From positions 1-51,806 of the forward strand of contig CAZUSM010000001.1 of the NCBI GenBank assembly GCA_964623675.1: a stretch of DNA of 51,806 nucleotides, given 5' to 3'. Below the pieces are notes generated by a model. It saw only the letters and a program-made list of their open reading frames with translations. It ran no database searches and was not told the DNA's origin. This document shows positions 18,913-36,025 of this stretch, piece after piece. Numbering within the stretch: position 1 is the first letter of the stretch; each line of letters starts with the position of its first letter. Source of the DNA: an uncultured Oscillospiraceae bacterium. GTDB taxonomy: Bacteria; Bacillota; Clostridia; Oscillospirales; Oscillospiraceae. Both the position numbers and the translations under genes were made by a program.

Positions 18913-18955
18913 TAAAAAAATCACCCCGGAAGCCCTGCGCGGGGCTTCCGGGGTG
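18913..18955 (-). terminator. rho-independent terminator
   Basis: CACCCCGGAAGCCC (18922-18935) pairs with GGGCTTCCGGGGTG (18942-18955). A run of 7 T follows on the minus strand (A-run 18914-18920 on plus). Confidence 0.85.
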
Positions 18956-18972
18956 TTGCTTATTTTGCTTTC

Positions 18973-19140
18973 TCACACGTAGTGCTTTCTCGGAATCTTG
19001 TCGTAGTGCTTCAGTAGAATCGGCTCTACGAAGGTGGAGAGGAACTTCATGTCGAGATTGAAAAAGTAAATCGTGAACGTCACGGCGAAAAAGCCGCCGA
19101 TGCTGCCGAGGATTATCCCCGGTATTTTCATTTTTTTCAT
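18973..19140 (-). CDS. small (55 aa) predicted single-pass membrane protein, absent from the ORF track
   Basis: My translation is MKKMKIPGIILGSIGGFFAVTFTIYFFNLDMKFLSTFVEPILLKHYDKIPRKHYV*. GGAGGT lies 7 nt upstream of the ATG at 19140. It sits between the dehydratase-family gene and the strong terminator, 27 nt downstream of the preceding stop. Confidence 0.55.
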   Translation of the reverse strand: MKKMKIPGIILGSIGGFFAVTFTIYFFNLDMKFLSTFVEPILLKHYDKIPRKHYV

Positions 19141-19167
19141 GCAATTACCTCCAAATGGGCGAATATG

Positions 19168-20748
19168 TCACCATGCGTGTTCGTCGGGCAGGGACTCAAT
19201 CGACGGGTCAAGCGGCTCTTCGCGCATGACCGTGCGCATGTAGGTGTTGAACTGGTCGCGAATGGCCTGGCGGGAGTATACGCGCGGGTCGCACAAATCG
19301 TGGCAGACCCAAACGAGGTGAATCCCGCGCTCGCGCGCCTGCTCCTCAAAGTGCCCGTGCAGCCCGGCGAATGCCTTGCACGACATGTGCTCCCACATCA
19401 TCACCATGTCTGCGTTCATCTTTTCGCAGATTTCCCACAGCTCGTCGAGCAGCACCTTGTACCCGCCGTGGGTGCGGTTGCGCATGATCATGTTCATGGT
19501 CAGATACGCCATGTCGTAGTAGGCCTGTTCGCGGTTTTCGGGCGTGTCCTCCTCGGCAATCTCCTTGTCGATGACCATCGACAGCATGTCCGTCAGCGGC
19601 ACGACGCCCCAGCAGTGAATCATCCAGTTGAGCATGTCGATGACGTACTGCGGCTGCACGCCCCACACCACGCAGCGGTGGCGGTATTCCGGCGCCATCA
19701 TGGTCTTGCGCTCATAGCCCTGATGCACAAGGCGCATTATCTTTTTGTCAATCGGCGGGAAGAGGGGACTGCGCCCGCAGTTGCCCATGTAGTTGGTGTC
19801 ATTGTAAAGCGAGAACACAGCGCCCACAAACTGCGGATACGGCGTGCTGTTTATCTCCAGCCATTCCACGCGGTTGCGCGTGGTGTCGTTGACGCGCTTG
19901 GCGCACTCGAAGTATGCCTTCCAATCCCACTTTTCGCCCGTCTGCTCTTCGATGAAGGCAATGGCGTTTTTGATGTCATTGGCGGCGTATTCCTGCACGT
20001 CCTCCTCGCGGTGGCGCATGGGCGCGACCAGCTGGAACGTCGGAATGCCGTATTCGCGCTCCAGACGCTTGGCGATGACGCCGTTGCCCATGAGCGAGCC
20101 GTCGCACGTGGTGTTCACCTGCACCGCGCATTTGCCCAGCACGGGAAAGTCATCCTCGATGGATATGCCCGCCTCGACCTCCGGCATGGGGCACACGTCG
20201 CCCGGAATGCCGAACTGCTGCGCCACGTCGATGTAATGCGTGGCGGAGTACTGGTTGAGGAGGTTTGCCGAGAACATGGTGGGCACTTCGCGCAGAATGT
20301 CATTGAGCATGGGGAAGCCCATCATGAACGCCGTCATCGCGTTTTCGTCGGTCAGCACACAGCGCTCGGAGTATTTCACGTCGTTGCCGGTGTGCCTGTC
20401 GCCGCGCACGGAGTTTTGGATGCACGTGGCCACGTCCTTCACCACGAAGTCCATCGCCGTGTGCGTGATGCGCAGCGGCTCATCGCGCAAGCCCATCGTG
20501 AACTTATCCATCATGTGCGGCACGGCCAAATAGTTTGCAAACCAGCGATAGCGGAACATGGCCTTGATGTTGCGGGGCTTGATGATGACCCCGGCGAGAA
20601 TCGACATCAGGTAGAGCCACCGGGTGTAATCATAAAACGTGTCTTTCACGCCGCGCCATTCGCGGCGGCGGCGCACCTTGCCGTCATTGAACAACACGCC
20701 GAGGCTTTTTTCACCGGGGCGCTCTTTCGGATTTTTCACCAACGCCAT
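19168..20748 (-). CDS. 2-hydroxyacyl-CoA dehydratase / benzoyl-CoA reductase BcrC-BadD-HgdB-family protein (large subunit-like)
   Basis: 526-aa protein of the HGD-D-type family by general resemblance (Cys-containing segments ..GDVCPMPE.., ..VNTTCDGS..). The start ATG overlaps the upstream stop (TAATG), suggesting translational coupling. Confidence 0.7.
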   Translation of the reverse strand: MALVKNPKERPGEKSLGVLFNDGKVRRRREWRGVKDTFYDYTRWLYLMSILAGVIIKPRNIKAMFRYRWFANYLAVPHMMDKFTMGLRDEPLRITHTAMDFVVKDVATCIQNSVRGDRHTGNDVKYSERCVLTDENAMTAFMMGFPMLNDILREVPTMFSANLLNQYSATHYIDVAQQFGIPGDVCPMPEVEAGISIEDDFPVLGKCAVQVNTTCDGSLMGNGVIAKRLEREYGIPTFQLVAPMRHREEDVQEYAANDIKNAIAFIEEQTGEKWDWKAYFECAKRVNDTTRNRVEWLEINSTPYPQFVGAVFSLYNDTNYMGNCGRSPLFPPIDKKIMRLVHQGYERKTMMAPEYRHRCVVWGVQPQYVIDMLNWMIHCWGVVPLTDMLSMVIDKEIAEEDTPENREQAYYDMAYLTMNMIMRNRTHGGYKVLLDELWEICEKMNADMVMMWEHMSCKAFAGLHGHFEEQARERGIHLVWVCHDLCDPRVYSRQAIRDQFNTYMRTVMREEPLDPSIESLPDEHAW

Positions 20749-21944
20749 TATTTCGCACCTCCCTGAAGCTTCTTTATTTCAATGCTTTCCACAAAGGCCT
20801 GTACGCGCGTGCGCATCTGCCCGACGGACGTGGCGATGTTGTACGGTCTGTCCACGCTCATCACCGGGAAGCCGTAATCGTCCCTCAGCATCGTCGAGCC
20901 CATCAGCCGCTCATAAGCCCACGGGTCGCAGAATTTGATCTGCTGATAAATAATGCCGTCGGCGTTGTATTCAAGCGCGATGTCGTTGACGTATTGCTTG
21001 CGGCCGTACACCTTTTCCATGTTCATCTGCCGCGGGCACTGCCCGCGATAAACATACGCCCGGCAAAGCTGGGTCAGCGCGTCCTCGGTGTCGTTGAGCT
21101 CAATGACGTCCCGCCCCGGCAGTGACCCGAAGCAGAAGCGGTCGGCGCACACATAAGCGCCGGTTTCCTCGATGAGCTTGACAAAGCCGCCGTCGTCCAC
21201 CTCTGAGCCGACCAGCGCGATTCTCGCGCGGTAAGGCTTTTCCTCCGGCTCGCGCGCGCGCACTTCCTCCAGCGTCTCCTCCAGCTTGTCAATCAGCAGA
21301 TACTTCGGCGCGACGTAGGTGGCCAGCGTGATTGTGTGGAACTCATACCCCGTGATGCGCGGCCTCTCCTCCTTGCGGAATTCGCCAAGCTCGCGGATGA
21401 GGCGGCACACGTGGTTGTGCTCCTCCACGGCGCGTCTGATCGCCGCGTCGGACACGTCAATGCCGTATTTTTCGTGCAGGGGAGTGAGAATGTGGTTTTT
21501 GCACTGGAGCTTCAGCAGTTCCACGCCGTTGTCGTCGGCCTTCAGGGGGATTTCCATGTACTCGTGGAAGAATTTTTCGTTCCCCTTGCCCATGGTTTTC
21601 AACAGCTCCATGTTCTCCACGCACCGGTTGATCATCGTGCAGCCGTCCGGCGCGATGACGCAGTCGGCGAAGCTGAACCCGCCCTCGATTGCGCGCTCCA
21701 GCAGGGCGCGGCTCGTTTCGCACAGCAGGCTCGTCATGTAATAGGTCGCGATGTCCATCGACCCCGTGTTCGGCGCGGACAGACGGACGGAAAACGTTCC
21801 GCCCAGGTTCATCAAAGGCTCCGGCGTGTTCTCGCACACGAACGCGACGCAGACCTTGCCCTCGTTTTTCGCTTGCCATATCAGCTCGTTGCCCGACTCG
21901 CGCACGAGGTTTTCAAAATAGCTCAGGTGCTTCAGGTCTCTCAA
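20748..21944 (-). CDS. 2-hydroxyacyl-CoA dehydratase-family protein (second subunit-like)
   Basis: HGD-D family features (..CVAFVCENTPEPL.., ..ADCVIAPDGCTMINRC.., ..QQIKFCDPWAYE..). The ORF track starts at 22079. GGAGGT plus 6 nt supports the TTG start at 21944 (MRDLKHLSYFENL..). Confidence 0.72.
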   Translation of the reverse strand: MRDLKHLSYFENLVRESGNELIWQAKNEGKVCVAFVCENTPEPLMNLGGTFSVRLSAPNTGSMDIATYYMTSLLCETSRALLERAIEGGFSFADCVIAPDGCTMINRCVENMELLKTMGKGNEKFFHEYMEIPLKADDNGVELLKLQCKNHILTPLHEKYGIDVSDAAIRRAVEEHNHVCRLIRELGEFRKEERPRITGYEFHTITLATYVAPKYLLIDKLEETLEEVRAREPEEKPYRARIALVGSEVDDGGFVKLIEETGAYVCADRFCFGSLPGRDVIELNDTEDALTQLCRAYVYRGQCPRQMNMEKVYGRKQYVNDIALEYNADGIIYQQIKFCDPWAYERLMGSTMLRDDYGFPVMSVDRPYNIATSVGQMRTRVQAFVESIEIKKLQGGAK

Positions 21945-21993
21945 TTGCTTACCTCCGTTCCTTGTTAGAATAATCCCAAAATATGCTGATACA

Positions 21994-22022
21994 AATTTAT
22001 CATTACGCGTCCGATAAGTCAA
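21994..22022 (-). promoter_or_regulatory. candidate promoter of the dehydratase-family operon
   Basis: Minus strand reads TTGACT (22022-22017), 17 nt, then TAAATT (21999-21994). Confidence 0.4.
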
Positions 22023-22032
22023 CGGAAATTGA

Positions 22033-23490
<1,458 letters not shown>

Positions 23491-23518
23491 TATAAGAGCA
23501 CACCAAATAATATGCAAA

Positions 23519-23548
23519 CGCCCCGCCGAAAAATCGCGGGGCGCTTTC
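23519..23548 (+). terminator. terminator after eno
   Basis: CGCCCCGC (23519-23526) pairs with GCGGGGCG (23536-23543), followed by CTTTC. The T-tract is weak. Confidence 0.55.
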
Positions 23549-23623
23549 ATGTATAATATCCTCCATTGCAGGCAAGAATAGGAATGCAGACAAAAGATTT
23601 ACTGCAAATGGAGGTCAAAAACT

Positions 23624-24361
23624 ATGAACAGCAGCGACTCCGGCAAGAGGCTGGAGAGATTTTTCACGGGTAAGGGCTTTTACATAGTCCTTTTCCTCTG
23701 CGCCGCGGTTATCGGCGTTTCCGCATGGATGATGGCGGCAGGAAATGAGACTATGGCAAAAGACATCGTCACCGACGACTCGGCGCTTTATTCCAACAAG
23801 CGCGTCGAGACCGTCATAATCACCCCGACGGACAACCCCGTCACCGAGGCGGGCGCGTTGGACGGCAGCGCCGTCCCCGCGATGAACGACGGCGCGCTCG
23901 ACGCCGACAGCGCCGACGCCCAACTTGCCGAGGCGTTTGAGGAAACCGCGCCTATGTGGCTCTGGCCTGTCAGCGGCAGCGTCGAGCGCGGCCACAGCGT
24001 TGACGCGCTTGCTTATGACGTCACGCTCCGCGATTGGCGCACCCACGCCGGCCTCGACATCGACGCGCCCGACGGCAGCACCGTCACCGCCACGCGCGGC
24101 GGCACGGTCGAGAGCGTCGAGACAGATGACCTTTACGGCACCGTCGTCACCATCGACCACGGCGACGGCACCAAGGCCGTCTATGCCAGCCTCGCCCCCG
24201 AACCGCCCGTCGCCACGGGCGACAGTGTCGAGGCCGGGTATATCATCGGCGCGGTCGGCACGAGCGCGCTGGCCGAAGTCGGGCAGGGGAGTCACCTGCA
24301 CTTCGCCGTCTTTGCCGACGGCCAAAGCGTCGACCCGCTGCACTTCTTGCAAGCGGCATAA
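23624..24361 (+). CDS. membrane-anchored M23 (LytM-domain) peptidase-family protein, SpoIIQ-like architecture
   Basis: N-terminal TM (FYIVLFLCAAVIGVSAWMMAA) and a C-terminal LytM domain with HxxxD (HAGLDID) and HxH (HLHF) motifs. GGAGG RBS. Confidence 0.85.
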   Translation: MNSSDSGKRLERFFTGKGFYIVLFLCAAVIGVSAWMMAAGNETMAKDIVTDDSALYSNKRVETVIITPTDNPVTEAGALDGSAVPAMNDGALDADSADAQLAEAFEETAPMWLWPVSGSVERGHSVDALAYDVTLRDWRTHAGLDIDAPDGSTVTATRGGTVESVETDDLYGTVVTIDHGDGTKAVYASLAPEPPVATGDSVEAGYIIGAVGTSALAEVGQGSHLHFAVFADGQSVDPLHFLQAA

Positions 24362-24505
24362 TCAAACACAACAAGCGCCCGACTCAAACGAGCCGGGCGT
24401 TTGCCGCGTTAATAAGATGTAGAAGTGATGTATTGAACGGCAATCGGTTTTCAGAGCATCAGCCCCGGCGAAAGCCTTCGCAAAGGCATTGTCCTATTCT
24501 CCCGA

Positions 24506-24946
24506 TTATATTGCTTTTGCGACCTGATTTGCTTTTTCAACCGCTGTGAGGATGTTGCCGGAGGCTTCCGCGTCGCCCACGAGGTAAACGCTCTCGCCCA
24601 TGGTATCTTTCAGCTCGTCGTACACCGTCTGCATGGGCTTGAGCCCGATGGAGATTATCACGGTGTCGGCCTCAATGTCGTGCTCGCCGAGCTTCTTGGT
24701 CTTCACGCGCTCAAAGCCCATGACCTTTGAGCGCGTGAACACGTGGATGTTTGCCTTGCTTTCAAAGGCTTCAACCATGAATTGCTCATTGGGCGGGGCG
24801 GGCTGAATCTCGCCGCCGGTCATGATGCCTTGGCTCATTTCAATCACGCTGATGTCCTTTGCCTCGTCCTCGCTCAGCCACAGCGCCACTTCACAGCCTA
24901 CCCACTCACCGTCGACAATTATTTGACAGAAGCGGTAAAAACCAAC
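24506..24946 (-). pseudogene. 3'-terminal remnant of an FAD/NAD(P)-dependent oxidoreductase (enoate-/2,4-dienoyl-CoA-reductase-like C-terminal domain)
   Basis: Only about 147 codons remain, open to an in-frame TAA at 24947-24949. The stretch ..IIVDGEWVGCEVALWLSEDEAKDISVIEM.. aligns with the second Rossmann GxGxxG strand-helix, but two Gly are replaced (DGEWVG). The N-terminal ~3/4 of such enzymes is absent and there is no RBS at the GTG at 24889. Confidence 0.7.
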
Positions 24947-25138
24947 TTATTGAAACAGGGCAGTTCTCACGTTCAATATCTGATGGAAAGTGTGAAAGAC
25001 AGCACTACCTATGTCCGCAATATCAAGTAATATCTCTTGGAAACGCTTTATAATGCCCCTCCACTATAAACAACTCTTATTTGTCTCTGAACTCTCATGA
25101 TCTCTACAGAGATGGAAATCGCGGGCGTGAATAAACAA

Positions 25139-25167
25139 ACGGTGCATAACGAACTATTATGCACCGT
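25139..25167 (-). terminator. terminator of the R-M operon
   Basis: ACGGTGCATAA (25139-25149) pairs with TTATGCACCGT (25157-25167). On the minus strand it is followed by TTGTTTATT. It begins 8 nt after the nuclease-gene stop. Confidence 0.75.
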
Positions 25168-25174
25168 AAAAGAA

Positions 25175-26251
25175 TTATGCAGGCAAAACAATCTGCTGTC
25201 CGAACCTCAAGTCTTCTTGTGTAGGCAGAATTGCTAATTTTACCGTTTCTATTTTCGCAACATTTACCAACGCTTTTTCGTAGTCAACAGTTTGACAATG
25301 GATATACATAAACAATCCTTTGGCATTGGTGCAAATTTTGACGCATCTCTCGCCATTTTCGTTCATATACACGCGGTAAATGTAATATTTGCAATCAGTA
25401 GAAGTTGCAAAATTGATTTCCTGGCTACTAAAAATCATTTTCTGGGCGAATTTATAATTGGTGGTTTTTACATCAAGGTATATAATTTCACCCGCTTTGG
25501 TCTCAAAATAGAAATCATAGGGCATCCCGCTTTCTCTTTCCTCGTTGAGCCATTTATAGTTGACAATCTCACCTGTTTCTTTTAATTTGGCAAAATGACG
25601 CTCAATAAGGAACTCGCCTTCTTTGCCGATTTTAGCAAAAATCTCACGAGCTTTATTCATATCGTATTCGCGATACTTTTTAGGAGCAACAGCAGTAGTT
25701 TGTGCAATTACTTCCAATTCTTCTGCTATTCTCGCGCCTGTTTCGTTTACGATTTTCTCTAAATATTCTAACAGAGGGGTGAACTGAGGGGCTTGTTCCG
25801 TAATACGATTTTTTATCCCTTCCCTTAACTCAATACCTAACAATGCCGTCTCTCTGTATGTGTTAGAATTTTCATTAAAAAGGAAAAACACGGGCTGACC
25901 GCCTTTTAGCCCAAACCAAAAGAGATACCATCGAACATTATCAGCATATTCTTTGGCGCGATCTCTGATGAAGGTAACAACGCTAACTTCGTTCTTTTCG
26001 CCTTTTCTAATCTTCGGGCTTCTAAATGAGCCGTCGGGATTTTCGATTCTATCAAAATTTAAAGGCAGAAACTCAACTGCGTTGTTATAAATGAGCATAC
26101 TATCTTCTATCTCAAAACTATTTGGCAAATATGTAAATACATCGCCAAACAAGCCAATGTGCGTCTGATTAGACGTTTTACTCCGTCCTAAATCTGCATC
26201 GGTTAATTGCTTATATGCAATTATTTTTTCGTTGTGAAGTTCAAAAAACAC
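25175..26251 (-). CDS. putative restriction endonuclease: N-terminal B3/EcoRII-N-like DNA-binding region plus C-terminal DUF3883-type PD-(D/E)XK nuclease domain
   Basis: The C-terminus GKEGEFLIERHF..GMPYDFYFET..GEIIYLDVKTT..IFSSQEINFA..YYIYRVY matches the DUF3883 (E..D..(D/E)VK) pattern. GTG start at 26251 with GAGGTGAT RBS. It is the last gene of the operon, after two C5-MTases. Confidence 0.65.
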   Translation of the reverse strand: MFFELHNEKIIAYKQLTDADLGRSKTSNQTHIGLFGDVFTYLPNSFEIEDSMLIYNNAVEFLPLNFDRIENPDGSFRSPKIRKGEKNEVSVVTFIRDRAKEYADNVRWYLFWFGLKGGQPVFFLFNENSNTYRETALLGIELREGIKNRITEQAPQFTPLLEYLEKIVNETGARIAEELEVIAQTTAVAPKKYREYDMNKAREIFAKIGKEGEFLIERHFAKLKETGEIVNYKWLNEERESGMPYDFYFETKAGEIIYLDVKTTNYKFAQKMIFSSQEINFATSTDCKYYIYRVYMNENGERCVKICTNAKGLFMYIHCQTVDYEKALVNVAKIETVKLAILPTQEDLRFGQQIVLPA

Positions 26252-26257
26252 TTATCA

Positions 26258-27325
26258 TCACCTCAATTTCAAATGAACAAATAAATAGTAAAAGATGGCG
26301 TACACAGTATTGACGCTAACGGCATTTCCCGCTTGTTTATAAAGCTGCGCATTGCTTACCCCTGCTGAAGCAGCTTTTTCAAAACATTCTGCCGAAAATC
26401 CTTGTAACAGAAATGCCTCCTTCGGCGTTATTTTGCGAATACGTTGTTTGCAAAGTTCTTCCTTCGTATAAGAGGTTTCTAAGTATGCAACGGGATCTAC
26501 GGCTTGAATATACCCATCACTAAAATAGTTATCTTGGCAAGCGCGGTGCATTTTTACCATAGTTGCAGTTAAGGGTTTTGCGATCAGTGGGTTAATTTCA
26601 GACTTTGAATGATATGTTTTCGTCCCATTTGACAAAATGGTTGGTTTAATTGTCTCGGAAAGATAGAATTTCTCACTCACTGTTTTTTCCAAGATATCGT
26701 GTGTAGATTGCTGCATTAAAAGAGAGGTATCTTTCATCACGTTAGAAAAAACACTTTTTACGACTTTGCTAGTAAAGCTGAATCCCTCAATTTCTTCTGT
26801 TGTTGCCAAAATAAATACTCTATTCCGCTTTTGAGCTAATCCAAAATCCTCGGTATTAAAGATATCGAAATAGATATTTTTATACCCGCAATTCTTTAAC
26901 GACGCCAAAATATATGCAAAGGTTTGTCCGTTATTATGTGTCTTCAGATTACGCACATTTTCCAACAACACATATTTAGGCTTTGTTCTTTTTAGAATTT
27001 CAAGAATTTGAAAAAATACATTTCCACGCATATCCTCAAATCCTTTTTGCTTTCCCATCATGCTAAAGGCCTGGCAGGGAAACCCACCGGTCAGCAAATC
27101 AATTTTAGGAAGGGAGAGTATGTTTTCCTCGTCTTGATTAAAGGCAACTATGTCTCCCATTTCAAGCTCATGCTCTGTATTGTAGATAGCTTTGTAGGAT
27201 TTAACTGCACTTGAATCAATTTCGGAAAAAGCAATCGTTGCTTGAGGAATATCAAAATCCTCACTTAGCAAGGTTAAGGCTTGTCTGAATCCACCTATGC
27301 CTGCAAACAATTCTAAATGGTTCAT
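26258..27325 (-). CDS. DNA (cytosine-5)-methyltransferase (second of two)
   Basis: Motif I ELFAGIGGF, IV GGFPCQAFS, VI LLENVRNL, VIII QKRNRVFI, IX ITPKEAFLLQGF, X AGNAVSV. The start overlaps the upstream MTase stop (ATGA). Confidence 0.95.
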   Translation of the reverse strand: MNHLELFAGIGGFRQALTLLSEDFDIPQATIAFSEIDSSAVKSYKAIYNTEHELEMGDIVAFNQDEENILSLPKIDLLTGGFPCQAFSMMGKQKGFEDMRGNVFFQILEILKRTKPKYVLLENVRNLKTHNNGQTFAYILASLKNCGYKNIYFDIFNTEDFGLAQKRNRVFILATTEEIEGFSFTSKVVKSVFSNVMKDTSLLMQQSTHDILEKTVSEKFYLSETIKPTILSNGTKTYHSKSEINPLIAKPLTATMVKMHRACQDNYFSDGYIQAVDPVAYLETSYTKEELCKQRIRKITPKEAFLLQGFSAECFEKAASAGVSNAQLYKQAGNAVSVNTVYAIFYYLFVHLKLR

Positions 27326-28461
27326 AAGTATTTGATAATCTCCTCCCCGATAACTTGCGCTAATTTCACAGGAACAGCATTCCCGATCTGCTTATACCAA
27401 CTGTTTTGAGGTCCGAAAAAAACAAAATCATCAGGAAATGTCTGTATCCTTGCGGCTTCACGGGGGGACAAGCCTCGTGCCTGTGTTGGATGAATATACA
27501 TATTACAGTCGAATCTCATATGTGAAGTAATGGTCTTGCAAACATCATTGAAACGCAACTTGAAATATTTGTCTTTAAATATGCCGTTGCGGGATTTATA
27601 TGGCATAATATCTGCAATACATTCGTGCAACGAATTTGCACCTTGCGGCAGCCGAGTAAATATTTCTATATCTCTGTCATTGTTGTACCTGTTTTTGTGA
27701 TTATACAGATAATCAATTTTTCTTTCACCATTAATAAACGAATAAAACGGAGTAGCCGCATACGAATACTCTATACGGGTATATCCTGTCCCGGCGCATT
27801 CGCTTTTGTTATTATTCTTTATCCGGTTCGGCTCTAATTGAGGCAGATCGGCTATAGCGTCATATAAAGTAAATCTTGGCGTTGTAGTTTCTCTATTGTG
27901 GATTTCTTCGATTATTTGTTTAGATGAAACACCAATTCGATTGCCAATTAAAAATACCCTCTCACGATTTTGAGGGACACCAAAATTCTTAGCATTGAAA
28001 ACATCAAAAAAAACATCGTATTCTTGTCCGAGATATTCTTTTATATCAGCTAATATTTCATCAGTTTTATTCAACATCCCCTTTACATTTTCCATAACAA
28101 AAAACTTGGGACGAGAATTTTTCAAAAAAACCAAATATTCTTTGTACAGAACGTTTCTCGGGTCGTTTATCAAGCGCTGTCTATTGGCTGTAGAAAAGCC
28201 TTGACAAGGGGGACCACCACACACTAAAGCTACATTAGCAAATTGTTTAGCAAATTCAGAGTATCTGCGATTTAATTCTGCAATATCGCCTACAAACATT
28301 TTATCCGCGCCTAGCGCCCTGTTTGCTAAATATGTTTGCGAGCAGATGGGATCAATGTCGCTTGCGAATGCAACTTGAAATCCCGCTTGTTCCATTCCCA
28401 AACTCAATCCACCACATCCTGCAAATAAATCAACAAAGTTATTCTTCATCTGTATCACCAT
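27322..28461 (-). CDS. DNA (cytosine-5)-methyltransferase (first of two)
   Basis: Motif I DLFAGCGGLS, IV GGPPCQGFS, VI VMENVKGM, VIII QNRERVFLIG, IX LSPREAARIQTFPDDF, X IGNAVPV. Alternative start at ATG 28449. Confidence 0.95.
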   Translation of the reverse strand: MVIQMKNNFVDLFAGCGGLSLGMEQAGFQVAFASDIDPICSQTYLANRALGADKMFVGDIAELNRRYSEFAKQFANVALVCGGPPCQGFSTANRQRLINDPRNVLYKEYLVFLKNSRPKFFVMENVKGMLNKTDEILADIKEYLGQEYDVFFDVFNAKNFGVPQNRERVFLIGNRIGVSSKQIIEEIHNRETTTPRFTLYDAIADLPQLEPNRIKNNNKSECAGTGYTRIEYSYAATPFYSFINGERKIDYLYNHKNRYNNDRDIEIFTRLPQGANSLHECIADIMPYKSRNGIFKDKYFKLRFNDVCKTITSHMRFDCNMYIHPTQARGLSPREAARIQTFPDDFVFFGPQNSWYKQIGNAVPVKLAQVIGEEIIKYL

Positions 28462-28642
28462 TTGCTATGTTCCTTGCTTTACAGAAGTTTTCAAATGTTT
28501 TCTTTGCAAGTCTGCTTGGATTATAACTGCCGTTTTCCCAACGATTAACGGTGGCATAACTAACTCCCAATTCGTGTGCGAGATCTTCTTGTGTCATTTT
28601 TAACTGCAATCTAACTAGTTTAATATTATTTGCAAAATCCAT
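28439..28642 (-). CDS. XRE-family HTH protein, candidate controller (C-protein-like) of the R-M operon
   Basis: 67 aa, ..LKMTQEDLAHELGVSYATVNRWENGSYNPS.. (HTH_3). First gene of the operon, overlapping the first MTase gene by 11-23 nt. RBS AGAGG lies 6 nt upstream. Confidence 0.85.
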   Translation of the reverse strand: MDFANNIKLVRLQLKMTQEDLAHELGVSYATVNRWENGSYNPSRLAKKTFENFCKARNIANGDTDEE

Positions 28643-28673
28643 AAATAACCTCTATGTAATGAGTATAAAAACT

Positions 28674-28702
28674 ATTATAGCACTTTTTATAGCATTTGTA
28701 AA
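28674..28702 (-). promoter_or_regulatory. near-consensus extended -10 promoter of the R-M operon
   Basis: Minus strand reads TTTACA (28702-28697), 17 nt, then TGCTATAAT (TGn plus TATAAT, 28682-28674), about 30 nt upstream of the HTH start. Confidence 0.7.
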
Positions 28703-29185
28703 TAGCAGAGAGCGCCTTATAGGAATTATCGCAGTTGTATGCTTTCAATCCCAAACATCAATATCCATTTTGCGCGAGGGTTCAATAATAGATTGTTTGC
28801 AAGGAGGGACACACTTGCAGTGTTTGCCATCAGCTTTTTCACGCATAGTAACTAAGAATTAAACGGGGCAGTTAAATGCATTGAGGAATGGCTGCTTTGC
28901 CTGCTTGTGAACAAAAAACAGTAAGCATTTGTTAATGGCGGTGCGTATGCACCGTTCATCTTGATCATTGACAAGTGCCGTCTTTTTTTTACTCTAATAC
29001 TTTGATGAAAATTTTTTTGAAAAGTGTCCGAGCCACCCATTCTTAAAATCAGTAAATTGAAATGGTTTAAAAATCAGCCTAAGCGTCTTTCTATTTCCGC
29101 TTTTCGCAATCGTCATTTTGCCACTATTAAAAATCCGTGAAATGTGGTATAACTAATCGACAAAACCAACCAAGGAGAAAACCCA

Positions 29186-31339
29186 TTGAACAGCATTAAC
29201 GAGATTCTTGCCCGCGAGCTCAACCGCGAGCAGACGCACATTGACAACGTCATAAAGCTTTTGGACGAGGGCAACACCATTCCCTTCATCGCGCGCTACC
29301 GCAAAGAGCTGCACGGCGCGATGGACGACACCGCCCTGCGCACTCTCGCCGAGCGGCTGGAGTATCTCCGCTCGCTTGCCGAGCGGCGCGAAACCGTCAA
29401 AAACACCATAAACGAGCAGGGCAAGCTCACCGATGAGCTTGCCGCGGCCATCGACGCGGCGGAAACCCTTGCCGCATTAGAGGATCTTTATCGCCCCTAT
29501 AAGCCCAAGCGCCGCACCCGCGCCACCATGGCGCGCGAAAAGGGTCTCGGCCCTCTCGCGGATGAAATCTTCGCCCAGCGCGCCGACAGCCCCGCGCCCG
29601 AAACGCTTGCCGAGGCGTACATAGACCCCGAAAAGGGCGTGGAAACCGTCGAGGCCGCCCTTGCCGGGGCGTCCGACATCATTGCCGAGTGCATTTCCGA
29701 CGACGCCGACATCAGAAGCAAGCTCCGCGCCTTTATCGAAGCCAATGCCAGCCTTGTCTCCAAGGCCGCCACGGACGAGGACTCGGTTTATCGCCTTTAT
29801 TATGACTTCAAGCAGCGTGTCAACCGCCTGCAGGGGCATCAGGTTCTCGCCGTCAATCGCGGCGAGAAAGAGGGCATGCTCAAGGTTTCTCTGGAGCTTG
29901 ACCGCGAGCTTGCGCTTCAGCGCGTTCGCCGCGCGGTCATAATCCCCGGCAGCCCGGCCATGGCCTTTGTTCGCTCTGCGGCCGAGGACGCTTATGACCG
30001 CCTTATGTGGCCGTCCATGGAGCGCGAGGAGCGCAACGCCCTCACCGATATGGCCTCCGAGGGCGCAATCAAAATGTTCGCCCTCAACCTCAAGCCCCTT
30101 TTGATGCAGCCGCCCGTCAAGGGCAAGGTCACCATGGGGCTCGACCCCGGATACCGCAACGGCTGCAAGGTCGCCGTCATCGACGGCACGGGCAAGGTGC
30201 TCGACACCGCCGTCGTTTACCCCACGTTCGGCGACAACAAAAAGCGCGAGGCCATTGCCAAGCTCTCCGCGCTCATCAAAAAGCACGGCGTTGAGCACAT
30301 CGCCATCGGCAACGGCACGGCCTCGCGCGAAACCGAGCAGATGACTGTTGAAATGCTCCACGAGCTTGGTACGGGTCAGTCCTACGCCATTGTCAACGAG
30401 GCCGGCGCGTCGGTTTACTCCGCCTCGCCCCTCGCGGCTGAGGAGTTCCCGGAGTTTGACGTCAATCTCCGTTCTGCCGTGTCCATCGCGCGCCGCCTGC
30501 AAGACCCCCTTGCCGAGCTTGTCAAGATTGACCCCATGGCCATCGGCGTCGGCCAGTATCAGCACGACATGCCGCAAAACAAGCTCGCCGAAACGCTTGA
30601 CGGCGTGGTCGAGGACTGCGTCAACGCCGTCGGCGTTGACATCAACACTGCCTCCCCCTCGCTGCTGCAGCGCGTTTCCGGCCTGACCAAGACCACCGCC
30701 AAAAACATCGTCACCTATCGTGAGCAAAACGGCGCCTTCACCGACCGAAAACAAATTTCCAAAGTGCCCAAGCTCGGCCCGAAGGCCTTTGAGCAGTGCG
30801 CGGGCTTCCTCCGTGTGCCGGAAAGCGCGCAGGTGCTCGACAACACCGCCGTCCACCCCGAAAGCTACGCCGCCGCGAAAAAGCTTCTTGAACTCTGCGA
30901 CTATACCCTCGACGATGTTGCCGCGGGCGGCATTGCGGCCTTGCCCGCGCGCGTCAAGGCCGTGGGCGCGGCGAAGCTCGCCGCCGAGTGCGCCGTCGGC
31001 GAGCCGACGCTCAATGACATCGTCTCCGAGCTCATGAAGCCCGGCCGCGACCCGCGCGATGAGCTGCCCCCGGTGCTCCTGCGCAAGGACGTGCTGGAGA
31101 TAAAGGATCTCAAGCCCGGCATGGAACTCATGGGCACAGTGCGCAACGTCATCGACTTCGGTGTTTTCGTCGACATCGGCGTCCATCAGGACGGCCTTGT
31201 CCACATCTCTCAGGTCAGTGACAAGTTCATCCGCCACCCCAGCGAGGCCGTCTCCGTCGGCGACACGGTCAAAGTCGTCGTCCTCGACGTGGACGAGAAA
31301 AAGCACCGCATCTCCCTCTCCATGAAACAGGCCAAATAA
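29186..31339 (+). CDS. tex: Tex-like transcription accessory protein (YqgF/HHH/S1 domains)
   Basis: ..VIKLLDEGNTIPFIARYRKE.. N-terminus, YqgF-like ..GLDPGYRNGCKVAVID.., and a C-terminal S1 domain ..GTVRNVIDFGVFVDIGVHQDGLVHISQ... TTG start with AAGGAG 8 nt upstream. Confidence 0.95.
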   Translation: MNSINEILARELNREQTHIDNVIKLLDEGNTIPFIARYRKELHGAMDDTALRTLAERLEYLRSLAERRETVKNTINEQGKLTDELAAAIDAAETLAALEDLYRPYKPKRRTRATMAREKGLGPLADEIFAQRADSPAPETLAEAYIDPEKGVETVEAALAGASDIIAECISDDADIRSKLRAFIEANASLVSKAATDEDSVYRLYYDFKQRVNRLQGHQVLAVNRGEKEGMLKVSLELDRELALQRVRRAVIIPGSPAMAFVRSAAEDAYDRLMWPSMEREERNALTDMASEGAIKMFALNLKPLLMQPPVKGKVTMGLDPGYRNGCKVAVIDGTGKVLDTAVVYPTFGDNKKREAIAKLSALIKKHGVEHIAIGNGTASRETEQMTVEMLHELGTGQSYAIVNEAGASVYSASPLAAEEFPEFDVNLRSAVSIARRLQDPLAELVKIDPMAIGVGQYQHDMPQNKLAETLDGVVEDCVNAVGVDINTASPSLLQRVSGLTKTTAKNIVTYREQNGAFTDRKQISKVPKLGPKAFEQCAGFLRVPESAQVLDNTAVHPESYAAAKKLLELCDYTLDDVAAGGIAALPARVKAVGAAKLAAECAVGEPTLNDIVSELMKPGRDPRDELPPVLLRKDVLEIKDLKPGMELMGTVRNVIDFGVFVDIGVHQDGLVHISQVSDKFIRHPSEAVSVGDTVKVVVLDVDEKKHRISLSMKQAK

Positions 31340-31354
31340 ACCAAATACGGAACA

Positions 31355-31396
31355 AAAACTTCCTGTAAACGTCAAAGTATGCAGGAAGTTTTCTTG
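31355..31396 (+). terminator. terminator after tex
   Basis: AAAACTTCCTG (31355-31365) pairs with CAGGAAGTTTT (31382-31392), followed by a T-rich tail. Confidence 0.65.
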
Positions 31397-31424
31397 TAAT
31401 GTCTCGTAAAAGGAGTGTGTTTTC

Positions 31425-33518
31425 GTGAAAAAGCTTCTTGCCCTCTTTCTCACTCTCACCATGCTTTTTCTCCTCTGCGCATGCGGCGCGGCGGATGACG
31501 GCGCGGGCGAAAACGCCGCCTCTTTTTCCCCTCTTTCCGCCGCGGGCGAATGGCAGGGGATAGGCAAGTGCTATAAAGCCGAGCCGTACACCCTCCCCGG
31601 CAATGCCTATCAGGCGAAAAGGTGCGGCGATGAGCTCGTCTGCTTTGCCTCTCACATTTCGGGTGATTCCCACATCATCGTCGGCGGCGACGTCGTGTAT
31701 ACAACCTCCGATATCATCTCGGCCTATACCGTGTACGACAGCAGTGTGTGGGTGCTTGAAAATGTTTATTCCCAATCCGGCAGCGGCTATAAGCTCGTCA
31801 ATCTCTCCCTTGACGGAGCTCTGACTGCCGAGCTTGACGCCACCGCCCTTGTCCCGCAAATGGCGGGCATAAACGCCCTCAATTATGCCAACGGCACTTT
31901 GTTCGTCTTTTACGGCGATTCAAGGCTCGCCGCCGTGTCAAGCGACGGAGTGCTTGAATTTGACGGCGGCTTGCCGCCCGCCTCGGCGCACACCGCCCTC
32001 TCCCTCAACGGCGAAACCCTGCTTATATGCGCCACGGGAAACGGCGATGAGATATACTCGCTCAATGCCGACTTCGTGCCGACCCCGCTCGCCGTGACAG
32101 AGAGCGGGACAATCGTCCCCGACGCGAAAAATGAGCGCTTGCTGCTTTTCAATGCCGACGGGCTTTTTACGCTTGATGAGAGCTTTTCTCCCACGCCGGA
32201 GATTATTTGGCAGGAATGCTCCCTTGCGCTCAATGCCTTGGGAAACCCCGTCGACCTCGGCAACGGCGAATATCTCGTGAAAACCGCCGGGGAGTTTTGC
32301 CTCCTTTCCCCGGCAGACCCCGCAGCGTGGAAACCCAAAACTCAGCTCCGCCTCGCCTCGCTCGACTCGGCGGATGAGCTTCAAACAACGGTCGCCCGCT
32401 TCAACAGCGCCTCGCCCGATTATTATGTCACGATAGTTGACTATTCCGACGGCGGCACACTTGACGCCGAAACGGCGGCCATGTGCCTGGACGCGGACAT
32501 AATAAGCGGCGCGTTCCCCGATATGATATGCGTTTCGTCCGTCTCGCCCTTTCCCTATATGCGCAATGATTTGCTCGTTGACATGACATCCCTCATGGAA
32601 AATGACCCTGACGTGGGCATTCAAGATATCTCCATAGCCAATGCCCTGCGTTATGACGGCGCAATATACTATCTCGCCGGGACATATTCCTTTGAAACCA
32701 TGCTCGCCAAGCGTGAGCTGTTCGGCGACGTCTGCGGCTGGACGCTTGAGCAGTATTTACGCCTCGACGAAAGCCTGACCGACGACGTCATGACCATTTA
32801 CAACGTGACCCACGAGGCGTATCTCAACCACATCATCAAACGCTCGATGAATGACTATGTCGACTGGGCAACCGGCACGTGCTCATTTGACAGCGACGCT
32901 TTCATAAACCTTTTGTCCGTTGCGAAAAAGATACGCGAAACGCCCGAAGACCCCAATAATATGATTTTCGGTTCGGGCGCGAAATTAGTCGGCGATGGCC
33001 TGCGAATGACGGCGCTTACATGGGTGGATGAGATAAGCAAGCTCAAATTTTCCGAGCAGCAAGCGGGTTGTGAGCTGAGCTTTATAGGCTGGCCGTCATC
33101 AACCGGCAAAAACGGCGCGGATGTTCACCTCTATGACCCCGTGGCCATTCTCTCCCCCGGCGATAATATTGACGGCTGCTGGGCTTTCGTCAAGTTTATG
33201 CTCACATCCCCCGCAGACATCGCCCTGCCGGTTTACACGCCCCAATTGCAAAAAACACTGGACACGGCCAAAACGCAAGGCGTGGCCTCGATGCTCAGCC
33301 TTCCGGGCGCAGACCCCATAAAGCTCACCGACGCCGACATAGAAAAGCTCACCGCCGTGATAACTTCCATAGAAAACACCACCATCTACGACGAAGCCCT
33401 ATTCTCCATCATCCAGTCGGAGTATAACGCCTATATGTGCAGTGAAACAACCGCCTCCGAATCCGCCACCCGCACCCAATCCCGCGCCTCCATCTACCTC
33501 TCCGAGCAATACGGCTGA
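31425..33518 (+). CDS. large lipoprotein: N-terminal repeat/beta-rich region plus C-terminal extracellular solute-binding-protein-like domain
   Basis: GTG start after AAAAGGAG. Lipobox LLCACG. The C-terminal ~380 aa resembles family-1 sugar SBPs (..LRLASLDSADELQTTVARFNSASPDYYVTIVDY.., ..SFIGWPSS..). There are no adjacent ABC permease or ATPase genes. Confidence 0.7.
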   Translation: MKKLLALFLTLTMLFLLCACGAADDGAGENAASFSPLSAAGEWQGIGKCYKAEPYTLPGNAYQAKRCGDELVCFASHISGDSHIIVGGDVVYTTSDIISAYTVYDSSVWVLENVYSQSGSGYKLVNLSLDGALTAELDATALVPQMAGINALNYANGTLFVFYGDSRLAAVSSDGVLEFDGGLPPASAHTALSLNGETLLICATGNGDEIYSLNADFVPTPLAVTESGTIVPDAKNERLLLFNADGLFTLDESFSPTPEIIWQECSLALNALGNPVDLGNGEYLVKTAGEFCLLSPADPAAWKPKTQLRLASLDSADELQTTVARFNSASPDYYVTIVDYSDGGTLDAETAAMCLDADIISGAFPDMICVSSVSPFPYMRNDLLVDMTSLMENDPDVGIQDISIANALRYDGAIYYLAGTYSFETMLAKRELFGDVCGWTLEQYLRLDESLTDDVMTIYNVTHEAYLNHIIKRSMNDYVDWATGTCSFDSDAFINLLSVAKKIRETPEDPNNMIFGSGAKLVGDGLRMTALTWVDEISKLKFSEQQAGCELSFIGWPSSTGKNGADVHLYDPVAILSPGDNIDGCWAFVKFMLTSPADIALPVYTPQLQKTLDTAKTQGVASMLSLPGADPIKLTDADIEKLTAVITSIENTTIYDEALFSIIQSEYNAYMCSETTASESATRTQSRASIYLSEQYG

Positions 33519-33534
33519 AAACCATTAAAAATGC

Positions 33535-33572
33535 AAACAGGTCTGTAGTGAAAAATAGCTACAGACCTGTTT
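33535..33572. terminator. bidirectional terminator between convergent genes
   Basis: AAACAGGTCTGTAG (33535-33548) pairs perfectly with CTACAGACCTGTTT (33559-33572), with A/T runs on both sides. Confidence 0.85.
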
Positions 33573-33589
33573 TGCTTATTCATATTGTT

Positions 33590-36025
33590 TCACCCCATTA
33601 CCACATTCACTTCCACCGTTTCTCCTGTCTTGGCTAGGGGGAGGGTGGGGGCGGTTAGCGTTTGTCCGTTTGCGGTGAGGGTTTTTATTCCGTGCTCGAC
33701 GGCGTTGGGGTTTTGCACGTGGATTATGTACGTCGCCCCGCGGTAGCGGCGCGTCACGGTGAACTCGCGCAGGTCGGACGGAATGCACGGGTCGATTTCC
33801 AGCCCGTCATAGCCGGGCTTTATGCCCAATATCGCCTGACTCACGCTGACAAACGACCACGCCGCCGTGCCCGTCAGCCAGCTGTTTTTCGCCTCGCCGA
33901 ACGCGCTCGCGTCCTTGCCGGCGATCATTTGGCTGTACACATACGGCTCGGTGCGGTGGATGTCGCTCCGCTGCTCGGTGTAGGCGGGCGAGGTCTTAGA
34001 ATACACCTCATAAGCGCGGTTGCCGTGGCCGAGCACGGTCTCGGCGCAGGTGATCCACGGGTTATTGTGGCAGAATATGCCCGCGTTTTCCTTGTACCCC
34101 GGCGGATAGCTCGTTATCTCGCCGAGATTGAGATGATACGCAGTGTACGCCGGCTGCAACAGCACTATGCCGTGCTCGGTGTCGAGCCGCTCTTTCACGC
34201 TTTTCAGCGCGGTCTCAGCCTCGCCGGTGGCGCGGCCTATGCCCGCCATGACGCACATGCCCTGCGGCTCGATGAAAATCTGCCCCTCGTCGCACACGCG
34301 GCTGCCCACGGGCGCGCCGAACGCGTCATAAGCGCGGATGAACCACTTGCCGTCCCACCCGGCGGACAGAACGGCCTTTTCCATCGCGTCAATCGCGCGC
34401 TCGCATTCCTCCGCCTCGCCCGCAAGGCCGCGGCGGCGGCAAATCTCGGCATAAGCGCGCCCGTATTTGACGAACATGCCCGCGATGAACACGCTCTCCG
34501 CCACAGGCCCTTCACTCGGCCCCGTGGTCTGGAAGCTTTCGCCCGGATGCGCGGAAAAGCAGTTGAGATTCAAGCAGTCGTTCCAGTCGGCGCGGCCGAT
34601 GAGCGGCAAATCGTGCGGCCCAAGGTGCGTCGGGATATAATTGAAGCTGCGCCGCAGATGCTCCATCAGCGAGCGGGACAGCGTTTCGTCATTGTCAAAG
34701 GGGACTTGCTCGTCGAGTATGCCCCAGTCGCCGGTTTCGCGCAGATACGCGTCCACCCCCGCGATGAGCCACAGGGGGTCATCGTTGAACCCGCTGCCGA
34801 CGGCGAGGTTGCCCTTTTTCGTCAGGGGCTGATATTGGTGATACGCGCTCCCGTCGGGGAACTGCGTGGCGGCAATGTCGAGTATGCGCTCGCGCGCGCG
34901 TTCGGGAATCATGTGCACAAAGCCCAGCAGATCCTGGCACGAATCGCGAAAACCCATGCCGCGCCCCATGCCGCTTTCAAAATAGCTCGCCGAGCGGCTC
35001 ATGTTGAACGTCACCATGCACTGATATTGATTCCAAATGTTCACCATGCGCTCAAGGCGCTCGTCGCCGCCGTCGAGCCGGTAATTGCCCAAAAGCGCGC
35101 TCCAAAATTCGCCCAGCGCCGCAAACGCCGCGTCAAACTGCGCAGAAGTCAAATACCGCGCCTGCATCGCCTCGGCCTTGCCCTTGTTGATCACGCCCGG
35201 CGCGGTGAACTTCTCGCTCTGCGCGTTCTCGATATAGCCCAGGCCGATTATCAGCTCTTTCTCCTCGTCGGGGCGGAGCGCGACGTCAAACTCCATCGCC
35301 CCCACCGGCGCCCAGCCGTGGGCAATGCTGTTGGTGCAGTGCCCGGCCTTGACGGCCTGCGGCATGCTCGGCGCGCCGTACACGCCGACAAACGCGTCGC
35401 GCGCGGTGTCAAAGCCGTCGAAATCCTCGTTTGCCCACAGCACGGCGTAATGGTCGCGCCGCTCGCGGTACTCGGTTTTGTGGTATATCGCCCTCGGCGT
35501 GACCTCGACCTCGCCGACGGAGTAGTTGCGCTGGAAGTTGGACGCGTCGTCCATCGCGTCCCAAAGGCAAAACTCCACATAGCCGAACAGCGTCAGCGCC
35601 TTGGCGGCGTCCGTGGTGTTTTTCACGCTCACGCGCATCAGCAGGCAGTCGTCCCCGCGCGGCACGAACATCTCCTGCCGCGCCTCAACGCCGTCCTTGC
35701 GCCCGGAAATGACCGTGTATCCCAGCCCGTGGCGGCATTCATAGCCGTCCAGCTCCGTCTGCGTCGGCTGCCAGCCGATGTTCCACACGCTCTCGCCGTC
35801 CTTGATATAAATGTGCAGACCGTCGCTGTCAAGCGGGCTTGAGTTGTAGCGATAGCGCGTCAGACGGCGCAGCCGCGCGTCCTTATAAAAGCTGTACCCG
35901 CCGCCGGTGTTCGACACGAGCGTGAAAAAATCGTCGCTGCCGAGATAGTTGATCCAGGGCAGGGGAGTGCGCGGTGTGTCGATGATATATTCCCTCGCGG
36001 CGTCGTCAAAATGTCCGTACCTCAT
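33590..36025 (-). CDS. GH94 glycoside phosphorylase (cellobiose/cellodextrin/chitobiose phosphorylase family)
   Basis: MRYGHFDDAAREYIIDTPRTPLPWINYLG.. and conservation through the whole 811 aa are typical of cellobiose phosphorylase. GGAGGA lies 8 nt upstream of the ATG at 36025. The ORF-track TTG at 36040 overlaps the RBS. Confidence 0.92.
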   Translation of the reverse strand: MRYGHFDDAAREYIIDTPRTPLPWINYLGSDDFFTLVSNTGGGYSFYKDARLRRLTRYRYNSSPLDSDGLHIYIKDGESVWNIGWQPTQTELDGYECRHGLGYTVISGRKDGVEARQEMFVPRGDDCLLMRVSVKNTTDAAKALTLFGYVEFCLWDAMDDASNFQRNYSVGEVEVTPRAIYHKTEYRERRDHYAVLWANEDFDGFDTARDAFVGVYGAPSMPQAVKAGHCTNSIAHGWAPVGAMEFDVALRPDEEKELIIGLGYIENAQSEKFTAPGVINKGKAEAMQARYLTSAQFDAAFAALGEFWSALLGNYRLDGGDERLERMVNIWNQYQCMVTFNMSRSASYFESGMGRGMGFRDSCQDLLGFVHMIPERARERILDIAATQFPDGSAYHQYQPLTKKGNLAVGSGFNDDPLWLIAGVDAYLRETGDWGILDEQVPFDNDETLSRSLMEHLRRSFNYIPTHLGPHDLPLIGRADWNDCLNLNCFSAHPGESFQTTGPSEGPVAESVFIAGMFVKYGRAYAEICRRRGLAGEAEECERAIDAMEKAVLSAGWDGKWFIRAYDAFGAPVGSRVCDEGQIFIEPQGMCVMAGIGRATGEAETALKSVKERLDTEHGIVLLQPAYTAYHLNLGEITSYPPGYKENAGIFCHNNPWITCAETVLGHGNRAYEVYSKTSPAYTEQRSDIHRTEPYVYSQMIAGKDASAFGEAKNSWLTGTAAWSFVSVSQAILGIKPGYDGLEIDPCIPSDLREFTVTRRYRGATYIIHVQNPNAVEHGIKTLTANGQTLTAPTLPLAKTGETVEVNVVMG

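Follow-up and report, generated by a model that had tools for sequence, protein, structure and literature searches.

The question raised by the AT-rich block of the window analysed here, a stretch of 51,806 nt from an uncultured Oscillospiraceae bacterium (assembly GCA_964623675.1, contig CAZUSM010000001.1), is whether its four minus-strand genes constitute an intact restriction-modification (R-M) system and, if so, how they reached this genome and what kind of site they address. The genes encode a small XRE-family helix-turn-helix (HTH) protein, two 5-methylcytosine (m5C) DNA methyltransferases (MTases), referred to as M1 and M2, and a candidate restriction endonuclease (REase), referred to as R. 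An initial annotation of the locus had described it as a foreign island carrying a four-gene R-M operon, and with this central reading the domain content, the synteny between genomes, the signs of purifying selection and the finding that sister genomes have the site empty are all in agreement. The locus is best explained as a horizontally acquired and intact Type II R-M cassette with a Type IIS-like, asymmetric way of working, which we consider probable; that it is a functional R-M system can be held with still greater confidence. The operon and its signals are listed below.

28668 to 28705, minus strand: promoter/operator block (-35 element TTTACA at 28702-28697; extended -10 element TGCTATAAT at 28682-28674)
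28439 to 28642, minus strand: XRE-family HTH protein, 67 aa (HTH_3, E 1.1e-12)
27322 to 28461, minus strand: M1, m5C DNA methyltransferase, 379 aa, with an alternative start at 28449 (PF00145, E 9e-75)
26258 to 27325, minus strand: M2, m5C DNA methyltransferase, 355 aa (PF00145, E 2.3e-71; TIGR00675, E 3.7e-74)
25175 to 26251, minus strand: R, candidate restriction endonuclease, 358 aa, GTG start (NOV_C, E 3.4e-12)
25139 to 25167, minus strand: intrinsic terminator of the operon (12-bp stem with five G-C pairs, 5-nt loop, then TTGTTTATT)

The coordinates given for the four genes in the initial annotation agree exactly with the list of open reading frames (ORFs), and the overlaps and the 6-nt gap it described were all verified: the HTH and M1 genes overlap by 23 nt (11 nt if M1 begins at the ATG at 28449), M1 and M2 overlap within ATGA, and M2 is separated by 6 nt from R, with GAGGTGAT located just 5' of the R start. 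The single promoter and single terminator said to bracket the genes were both located by consensus scan. The promoter (28702-28674) has the structure TTTACA-17-TG-TATAAT, matches 11 of 12 consensus positions with a TG before the -10 element, and is the best site in the region. Because promoter-like sites as a whole show no excess across the region (14 found versus 11.9 expected in shuffled sequence), the promoter call rests on its position and conservation and not on the scan. The terminator falls within the segment that is common with locus L011.

The R family was scanned using one genome per species and was found in 50 species. Its hosts include Clostridia, Bacteroidota, Gastranaerophilales, Alphaproteobacteria, Desulfovibrionaceae, Campylobacterota and Mollicutes, as well as bacteria of the candidate phyla radiation (CPR; Saccharibacteria and Uhrbacteria) and one Methanomethylophilaceae archaeon. 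Synteny was evaluated in the 46 loci with enough upstream DNA, and in 44 of these species genomes M1, M2 and R are collinear, with an M2-R gap of approximately 6-13 nt, while the genes around the cassette are unrelated between loci. Identity to the window proteins ranges from 56 to 92% for M1, from 51 to 94% for M2 and from 37 to 93% for R. The MTases are better conserved than the nuclease across the family, which has also been reported for the HgaI/MhoVI homologues (PMC12376442). The cassette has a lower G+C content than its flanks in 45 of 47 loci (means 0.31 versus 0.39).

The HTH gene does not share this constancy, and the four-gene description has to be narrowed to that extent: the M1-M2-R core stands, and the HTH gene is a clade-specific accessory instead of a constant part. 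A gene of the window type is confined to the nearest Clostridia clade and to L031 and L032, two alphaproteobacterial metagenome-assembled genomes (MAGs); elsewhere its position is taken by an HTH_26-type gene or by a third small type of HTH gene, or there is no such gene; the small regulator gene is missing in most copies from Bacteroidota, Gastranaerophilales and Campylobacterota. As the type of regulator varies between clades or the regulator is absent, we take the core to be M1-M2-R and the regulator to be swappable. Upstream (5') of M1 in L002, L004, L017, L022, L023, L024 and L056, at least three unrelated HTH types besides the window XRE are found, namely an HTH_26-like type, a 'QAAQKWGISQRRVQILC' type and an 80-aa XRE.

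The nearest solved structures to the window HTH protein are CylR2, a PbsX-family protein and HipB, not the C proteins of R-M systems. The gene precedes the MTases and not R, and the PADLOC Control_protein models match it with E-values of just 3e-3 to 6e-3, so that it falls outside the C-protein class; the order XRE, then MTase, then REase has been described for XRE.MhoVI and is unlike the classical C-protein layout (PMC12376442). Within the promoter block a tandem TGCTATAA repeat occupies positions 28694-28687 and 28682-28675. The whole block, CTATTTACAAATGCTATAAAAAGTGyTATAATAGTTTT, is almost invariant wherever the XRE gene is present (near-identical in L005, L006 and L011), although the sequences immediately 5' of it bear no relation to one another, and the tandem TGyTATA over the -10 element recurs even in cassettes whose HTH protein is only 50% identical. 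This pattern makes the TGyTATA block a likely operator for XRE autorepression.

Both MTases match PF00145 end to end (E 9e-75 for M1 and 2e-71 for M2), TIGR00675 scored above its cut-off, and motifs I, IV (PCQ), VI (ENV), VIII, IX and X are visible in both translations, which bears out the full m5C motif set ascribed to them earlier. They are also, as had been claimed, two different enzymes: their mutual identity is just ~25-32% and their target-recognition regions are unrelated. The best matches in the PDB, M.HaeIII for M1 and M.HhaI for M2, cover the core region only and stop before the target-recognition region. Among 50 distinct sequences, the target-recognition domain (TRD) of M1 (aa 241-320) shows an identity of 0.67-0.83 and that of M2 (aa 221-260) an identity of 0.73-0.89. 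Since these segments are as conserved as the catalytic motifs, they argue for one specificity common to the whole cassette family. Membership in DISARM or Druantia, suggested by PADLOC matches to DrmMII and DruM, was rejected; the matches reflect generic m5C-MTase similarity and the other components of these systems are absent.

The nuclease assignment of R starts from a match to Pfam NOV_C (formerly DUF3883) over residues 218-301 (nt 25349-25600; E 3.4e-12, 46.7 bits versus a cut-off of 22.1), a domain that Steczkiewicz et al. (PMC3424549) placed within the PD-(D/E)xK nuclease superfamily. A collection of 5.8 billion proteins yielded 448 homologues of R; those listed are approximately 307-372 aa long, and where a homologue carries any name it is only 'DUF3883 domain-containing protein'. 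NCBIfam has no model for R, PADLOC matches its C-terminal half to the C-terminus of TmtA and to one candidate family only, and searches of PDB sequences with R and with an R-family profile gave chance-level matches only. Judged by the 448 homologues, NCBIfam and the PDB (REBASE lay outside the scope), the nuclease family and its architecture appear to be uncharacterised. Residues E213, D246, D260-V261-K262, Q270 and E278 are invariant in 38 R homologues down to 48% identity, and the residues form what reads as the classical E...D...(D/E)xK constellation of an intact active site.

The AlphaFold2 (AF2) model of R has a mean predicted local distance difference test score (pLDDT) of 91 and consists of a beta-rich N-domain (residues ~1-152), three long helices (157-225) and an alpha/beta nuclease core (231-341), so that the recognition and cleavage domains proposed below are separate and joined by long helices.

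25796 to 26251, minus strand: N-domain of R, residues 1-152, B3-like pseudobarrel and proposed recognition domain (Foldseek on the predicted model)
25178 to 25669, minus strand: C-domain of R, residues 195-358, PD-(D/E)xK fold and proposed cleavage domain (invariant residues, Foldseek)

Foldseek searches were made with the whole model and with an N-domain predicted separately (pLDDT 90). In both, the best matches of the N-domain are exclusively B3-type pseudobarrels, and the top six of the separate model have TM-scores of 0.45-0.61. The matches are BfiI (2c1l, E 8.9e-4, the top match), the BfiI C-terminal domain with DNA (3zi5), LlaJI.R1-N of Helicobacter pylori (6c5d; E 1.1e-3, probability 1.00, TMt 0.60), the B3 domain of LEC2 with DNA (6j9c, TMt 0.61), and the B3 domains of UbaLAI and TEM1. 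On these predicted models we assign the N-domain, with moderate confidence and without a competing fold, to the B3-like DNA-binding domains. The C-domain resembles the PD-(D/E)xK nuclease subunit of SPARDA and PvuII, and a Pfam scan of R found no PUA, SRA, DUF3427 or other modification-sensing domain. The R-type N-domain also occurs in another setting: protein P0203 (970 aa) carries it (42% identity, E 9e-16) fused with ankyrin repeats and a complete sigma-70 factor including regions 2, 3 and 4. Here a transcription factor seems to have taken up a reader domain of restriction enzymes, recalling the B3 factors of plants.

The division of labour between the two domains is best approached through LlaJI. 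This system possesses two m5C MTases and an R1 subunit that sets the specificity, and addresses the asymmetric site GACGC (PMC1459862); its R1 subunit is composed of an N-terminal B3 domain and a McrB-like GTPase, and R2 is the nuclease subunit (PMC1459862; PMC7680126). The B3 N-domain of LlaJI binds DNA site-specifically (PMC7680126). The closest annotated relatives of the M1/M2 pair, with 59% and 58% identity, are located on plasmid pTS1 of Treponema saccharophilum, where the pair is followed by an AAA ATPase and by a gene annotated as 'LlaJI family restriction endonuclease'. When the R N-domain alone (155 aa) was searched against the full library, 151 proteins were found, most of them R-like; several are 500-900-aa proteins in which an AAA_5/McrB-like domain follows the same N-domain. 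Two of these McrB-like proteins, examined in their genomic context, lie directly 3' of homologues of M1 and M2 with 59-60% and 52-53% identity to the window enzymes, and their N-domains are 38-40% identical to that of R. The motor of P0220 is 35% identical to the Treponema R1. As the same MTase pair and N-domain join either a small nuclease or a McrB-like motor, this arrangement is the strongest evidence that the N-domain would act as the sequence reader and NOV_C as a non-specific cutter, a Type IIS-like division.

These elements can be combined into a working model. A sigma-70 promoter would drive one polycistronic mRNA, XRE-M1-M2-R, and XRE would probably repress this promoter via the tandem TGyTATA repeats over its -10 element. 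On the analogy of HgaI/MhoVI and LlaJI, M1 would most likely modify one strand of a single asymmetric site and M2 the other, and the B3-like N-terminal domain of R would read this site when unmethylated. The C-terminal PD-(D/E)xK domain of R (NOV_C; E213, D246, D260 and K262) would then cut the DNA, presumably beside the site after two R molecules have paired, a pairing that is proposed because each chain has one active site. An asymmetric site with one MTase per strand is modestly favoured by the analogy, and cleavage outside the site we regard as an even bet. The Type IIS or asymmetric-site interpretation, already offered as inference in the initial annotation, is still inference; it is plausible, and has been strengthened by the two-domain build of R and by the LlaJI-type link.

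Several observations weigh against this interpretation. The R family is without a functional name or a solved structure, so that activity and specificity rest on homology. The B3 assignment is at the level of the fold only (TM-scores ~0.5-0.6, E ~1e-3), and no sequence similarity of the R N-domain to solved B3 domains was found. The N-domain of the Treponema R1 does not align with that of R by BLASTP or hhalign despite the 59% identity of the MTases, and a common MTase pair therefore does not always mean a common reader domain. The authentic LlaJI enzymes of pNP40 (NC_010901), M1.LlaJI and M2.LlaJI, match M1 and M2 over the catalytic core only, with 25-30% identity. Transfer of the GACGC specificity from LlaJI was accordingly rejected, the pNP40 MTases showing no TRD alignment to M1 and M2, and because this match is confined to the core the system probably recognizes a sequence other than GACGC. 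Furthermore, L052 contains R without any MTase and L020 has a different MTase beside R. Finally, a pair of m5C MTases is no proof of asymmetry, since the BsuM system, with ydiO and ydiP, uses two of them on CTCGAG (PMC10034627).

The last point bears directly on the alternative that survives best, a palindromic or degenerate target on which both MTases act at the same or overlapping sites and within which an R homodimer cuts, as in a Type IIP enzyme. It is in keeping with BsuM and with the B3-type domains of EcoRII-N and UbaLAI, which read the pseudosymmetric CCWGG (PMC2770665, PMC5766183), and no computed result fixes the recognition sequence. We nevertheless consider this alternative unlikely. 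M1 and M2, with their low mutual identity and unrelated TRDs, are both kept in 44 of 46 loci as if each were indispensable; the reader and nuclease domains of R are held apart by long helices; and the reader is exchangeable with McrB-like motors of the LlaJI type, the prototype of which has an asymmetric site (PMC1459862).

A number of loci display variants of the cassette or of its surroundings. In L052 (4944-7053, a Saprospiraceae MAG) the R homologue is 39% identical to that of the window and is without the first 14 residues; no m5C MTase was found within this 13-kb locus, an HNH_2 endonuclease gene being located upstream instead, and this copy of R may be orphaned or decaying. In L020 (1-7100, a Faecalimonas sp. 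MAG) an M1 homologue (55%) comes first, followed by an HTH_73+AAA_5 protein of 909 aa, a McrBC-family protein of 461 aa, an MTase and R; this m5C MTase (315 aa) is just 30% identical to M2 and the R homologue 50% identical to that of the window. Either a McrBC-like pair was inserted into the cassette and another MTase took the place of M2, or one system is nested within another. M1 is possibly disrupted in L012, where its best match spans just residues 5-228. Comparison of L008 (9210-10790) with P0220 shows R1 motors that are 35% identical and N-terminal domains that cannot be aligned, both following MTase pairs of ~59% identity to that of the window; reader domains seem either to turn over faster than the methylases or to differ in specificity despite similar MTases. 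Defence-island-like surroundings were found in L062 (1-11200), where an AIPR abortive-infection protein and a SNF2/ResIII helicase adjoin the McrB-type variant, and in L005 (11398-13425), where a SLFN_AlbA_2/HATPase_c_4 gene adjoins the cassette.

The arrival of the cassette in the window can be traced by comparison with sister genomes, which defines the following two features.

24366 to 29098, no strand: strain-specific insertion (blastn versus L066; empty site in L066, L067 and L068)
24506 to 24946, minus strand: 5'-truncated fragment of a Pyr_redox_2-type oxidoreductase gene (sub-cut-off Pfam match and homologue P0271)

By blastn against the sister genome L066, the insertion is 4733 bp long, stands in place of 44 bp, and lies between a peptidase M23 gene and the leader of Tex. 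The window aligns with L066 on both sides, 18972-24365 with 4483-9867 at 95% and 29099-31339 with 9912-12154 at 94.5%. L066, L067 and L068 all have the gene order enolase, peptidase M23, ~135 nt and then Tex, and the island is absent in all three; Tex is 98% identical in one of these relatives (flanks 92-95% at the DNA level) and 92% in the two others. The check for an empty site in related genomes, which the initial annotation had proposed, thus supports a foreign island, the borders of which have to be moved. The left border of 24938 marks just the start of the AT-rich DNA, the insert beginning at 24366, and the right border of 29170 takes in approximately 70 nt of the native AT-rich Tex leader (29099-29185), which the insertion left intact. 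The foreign composition holds as far as the low-G+C block is concerned, the cassette block being the sole AT-rich segment of the window (G+C 0.36-0.39 versus 0.46-0.66 elsewhere), whereas the quoted values of 33% versus 65% are replaced by measured means of 37.5% for the block and 57.2% for the remaining window. With the insertion the M23 peptidase gene lost its native terminator, a stretch of 44 bp in L066, which the insert replaced.

The left 580 bp of the insert, with a G+C content of 0.54, holds the oxidoreductase fragment. It matches Pfam Pyr_redox_2 below the cut-off (E 1.6e-4) and corresponds to the 3' part of a gene, 73% identical to residues 116-256 of the 256-aa protein P0271, the homology ending near 24919. 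The segment 24366-24946 also has a terminator-like hairpin, absent from the sister genomes. Disruption of a resident oxidoreductase gene by the island was rejected: the empty-site genomes do not contain the fragment, which therefore came with the insert. As both the fragment and the hairpin are absent from the sister genomes, donor chromosomal DNA travelled with the cassette, and the fragment is a hitch-hiking piece of the donor chromosome outside the R-M system. No integrase, transposase or terminal repeat was found in the insert, and Rfam and tRNA scans of the window gave no match, so that there is no tRNA integration site. A 9-bp direct repeat, AAAACCAAC (at 24938 and 29162), which coincides exactly with the two borders given in the initial annotation, was rejected as a target-site duplication and is a chance match: approximately 0.33 matches are expected by chance, and the right copy belongs to the native DNA, a variant of it being found in the genome with the empty site. 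The exact empty site and the hitch-hiking gene fragment show that illegitimate recombination can spread cassettes of this kind even though they encode no recombinase.

The closest cassette was found in a Clostridia MAG from goat rectum, with 90% DNA identity over a common part of 25007-28860 only and in a different context. Searches of plasmids with R by tblastn gave remote DUF3883-domain matches only (~24% identity), those of phages gave no match, exact-protein look-ups of the M23 peptidase and enolase returned none on record, and a metagenome scan with the 5' end of Tex had no match. The window contains further strain-variable regions besides the R-M insert: two segments of approximately 9 kb (~9823-18971 and 31340-40775) are not matched in L066, the closest sister contig, and 31340-33514, part of the second of these, is present in L067 and L068.

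Arrival by illegitimate recombination together with a gene fragment would also fit a decaying remnant, in which the MTases act as orphan epigenetic regulators and R is inactive, and to this can be added the GTG start of R and the perhaps disrupted M1 of L012. The state of the window genes makes such a remnant highly improbable. All four ORFs are full length relative to their homologues; no catalytic residue has been lost, nor has the promoter or the terminator, both of which are conserved; and dN/dS, the ratio of nonsynonymous to synonymous substitution rates, is 0.07-0.18 for the four genes in comparison with the closest relative and 0.03-0.11 with the next (0.08 for R versus L011, and 0.18 for the HTH gene), values that indicate strong purifying selection on all four. 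The least probable alternative, that R is not the partner of the MTases and is instead a modification-dependent (Type IV) or other DUF3883 defence nuclease adjoining an MTase pair, can point to DUF3883 as the catalytic domain of modification-dependent enzymes such as YenY4I and McaZI, some of them adjoining m5C MTases (PMC6765204), to the PADLOC match with TmtA and to the orphan R of L052. Against it, R has a B3-like N-domain and no modification-sensing domain was found in it, the distance of R from M2 is approximately 6 nt at almost every locus, and across phyla R co-varies with both MTases. A 5-methylcytosine-dependent nuclease encoded in one operon with two m5C MTases would also turn on the DNA of its own host, unless the enzymes address different sequence contexts.

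R-M systems are common and the existence of one more is unsurprising; the value of this cassette lies in its compact B3-like plus NOV_C nuclease, which at least 50 species genomes encode. R is a candidate for a Type IIS enzyme, new and subject to blocking by m5C, and enzymes of this type are the tools of Golden Gate cloning. The LlaJI-type link also offers a testable case of module exchange between NTP-dependent (nucleoside triphosphate-dependent) and simple restriction enzymes. More tentatively, and with the odds slightly against it, a B3-like reader and its matched m5C methylase pair could form a portable specificity kit serving two different killing devices, either the fused NTP-independent PD-(D/E)xK nuclease of the window or, as in the LlaJI type, a translocating motor of the McrB kind together with a partner nuclease. 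If both devices share the same reader specificity, the family would represent a natural experiment in the conversion between motor-driven and simple Type IIS restriction, and would add a new Type IIS prototype, m5C-sensitive and widespread among gut and CPR bacteria, with one archaeon besides.

Compared with known systems, the window cassette is set apart from the Type IV DUF3883 enzymes of the YenY4I/McaZI type by the absence of PUA, SRA and DUF3427 from R, the N-domain of which is B3-like. With the LlaJI type it shares the m5C MTase pair and an R N-domain with the fold of LlaJI.R1-N. In contrast to LlaJI, no AAA+/GTPase motor was found in R or in the insert, there is no separate McrC-like R2 nuclease, in LlaJI-type systems a PD-(D/E)xK enzyme, none of the four genes between promoter and terminator being McrC- or LlaJI-like, and the reader is fused directly to a small NOV_C nuclease. 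Without a motor and without an R2 subunit, the window system falls outside the LlaJI family, and because the reader is fused to the nuclease without a motor, R should not depend on NTP hydrolysis.

The Type IIS systems HgaI and MhoVI (GACGC) resemble the cassette in having a small XRE protein, two m5C MTases and one REase, in Mycoplasma hominis in the order XRE-M1-M2-R (PMC12376442), and likewise form a single polycistronic unit with MTases more conserved than the REase (PMC12376442). They differ in the size of the nuclease, R.MhoVI having 520 aa and the window R 358 aa (compared by published description only), and in that the window-type XRE gene occurs in some clades only. An HgaI-type GACGC specificity is unlikely for M1 and M2, since the MTases of LlaJI, which also recognizes GACGC, match them in the catalytic core only.

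Like R, BfiI is modular, with a B3-like pseudobarrel that reads an asymmetric site and a separate non-specific nuclease domain that cuts (PMC3973309). No sequence similarity between BfiI and R was detected, and the domain order is reversed, the B3-like domain of this Type IIS enzyme being C-terminal; its nuclease is a metal-independent phospholipase D (PLD) enzyme, whereas the PD-(D/E)xK (NOV_C) domain of R should be Mg2+-dependent. The arrangement of R in one chain, with an N-terminal B3-like and a C-terminal PD-(D/E)xK domain, is that of the Type IIE enzymes EcoRII and UbaLAI (PMC2770665, PMC5766183). In those enzymes, however, CCWGG is read by the catalytic domain itself, on which the B3 domain acts as an allosteric effector, whereas the NOV_C unit of R is small and is replaced by McrB-like motors in relatives, on account of which the B3-like domain is likely to be the sole reader of R.

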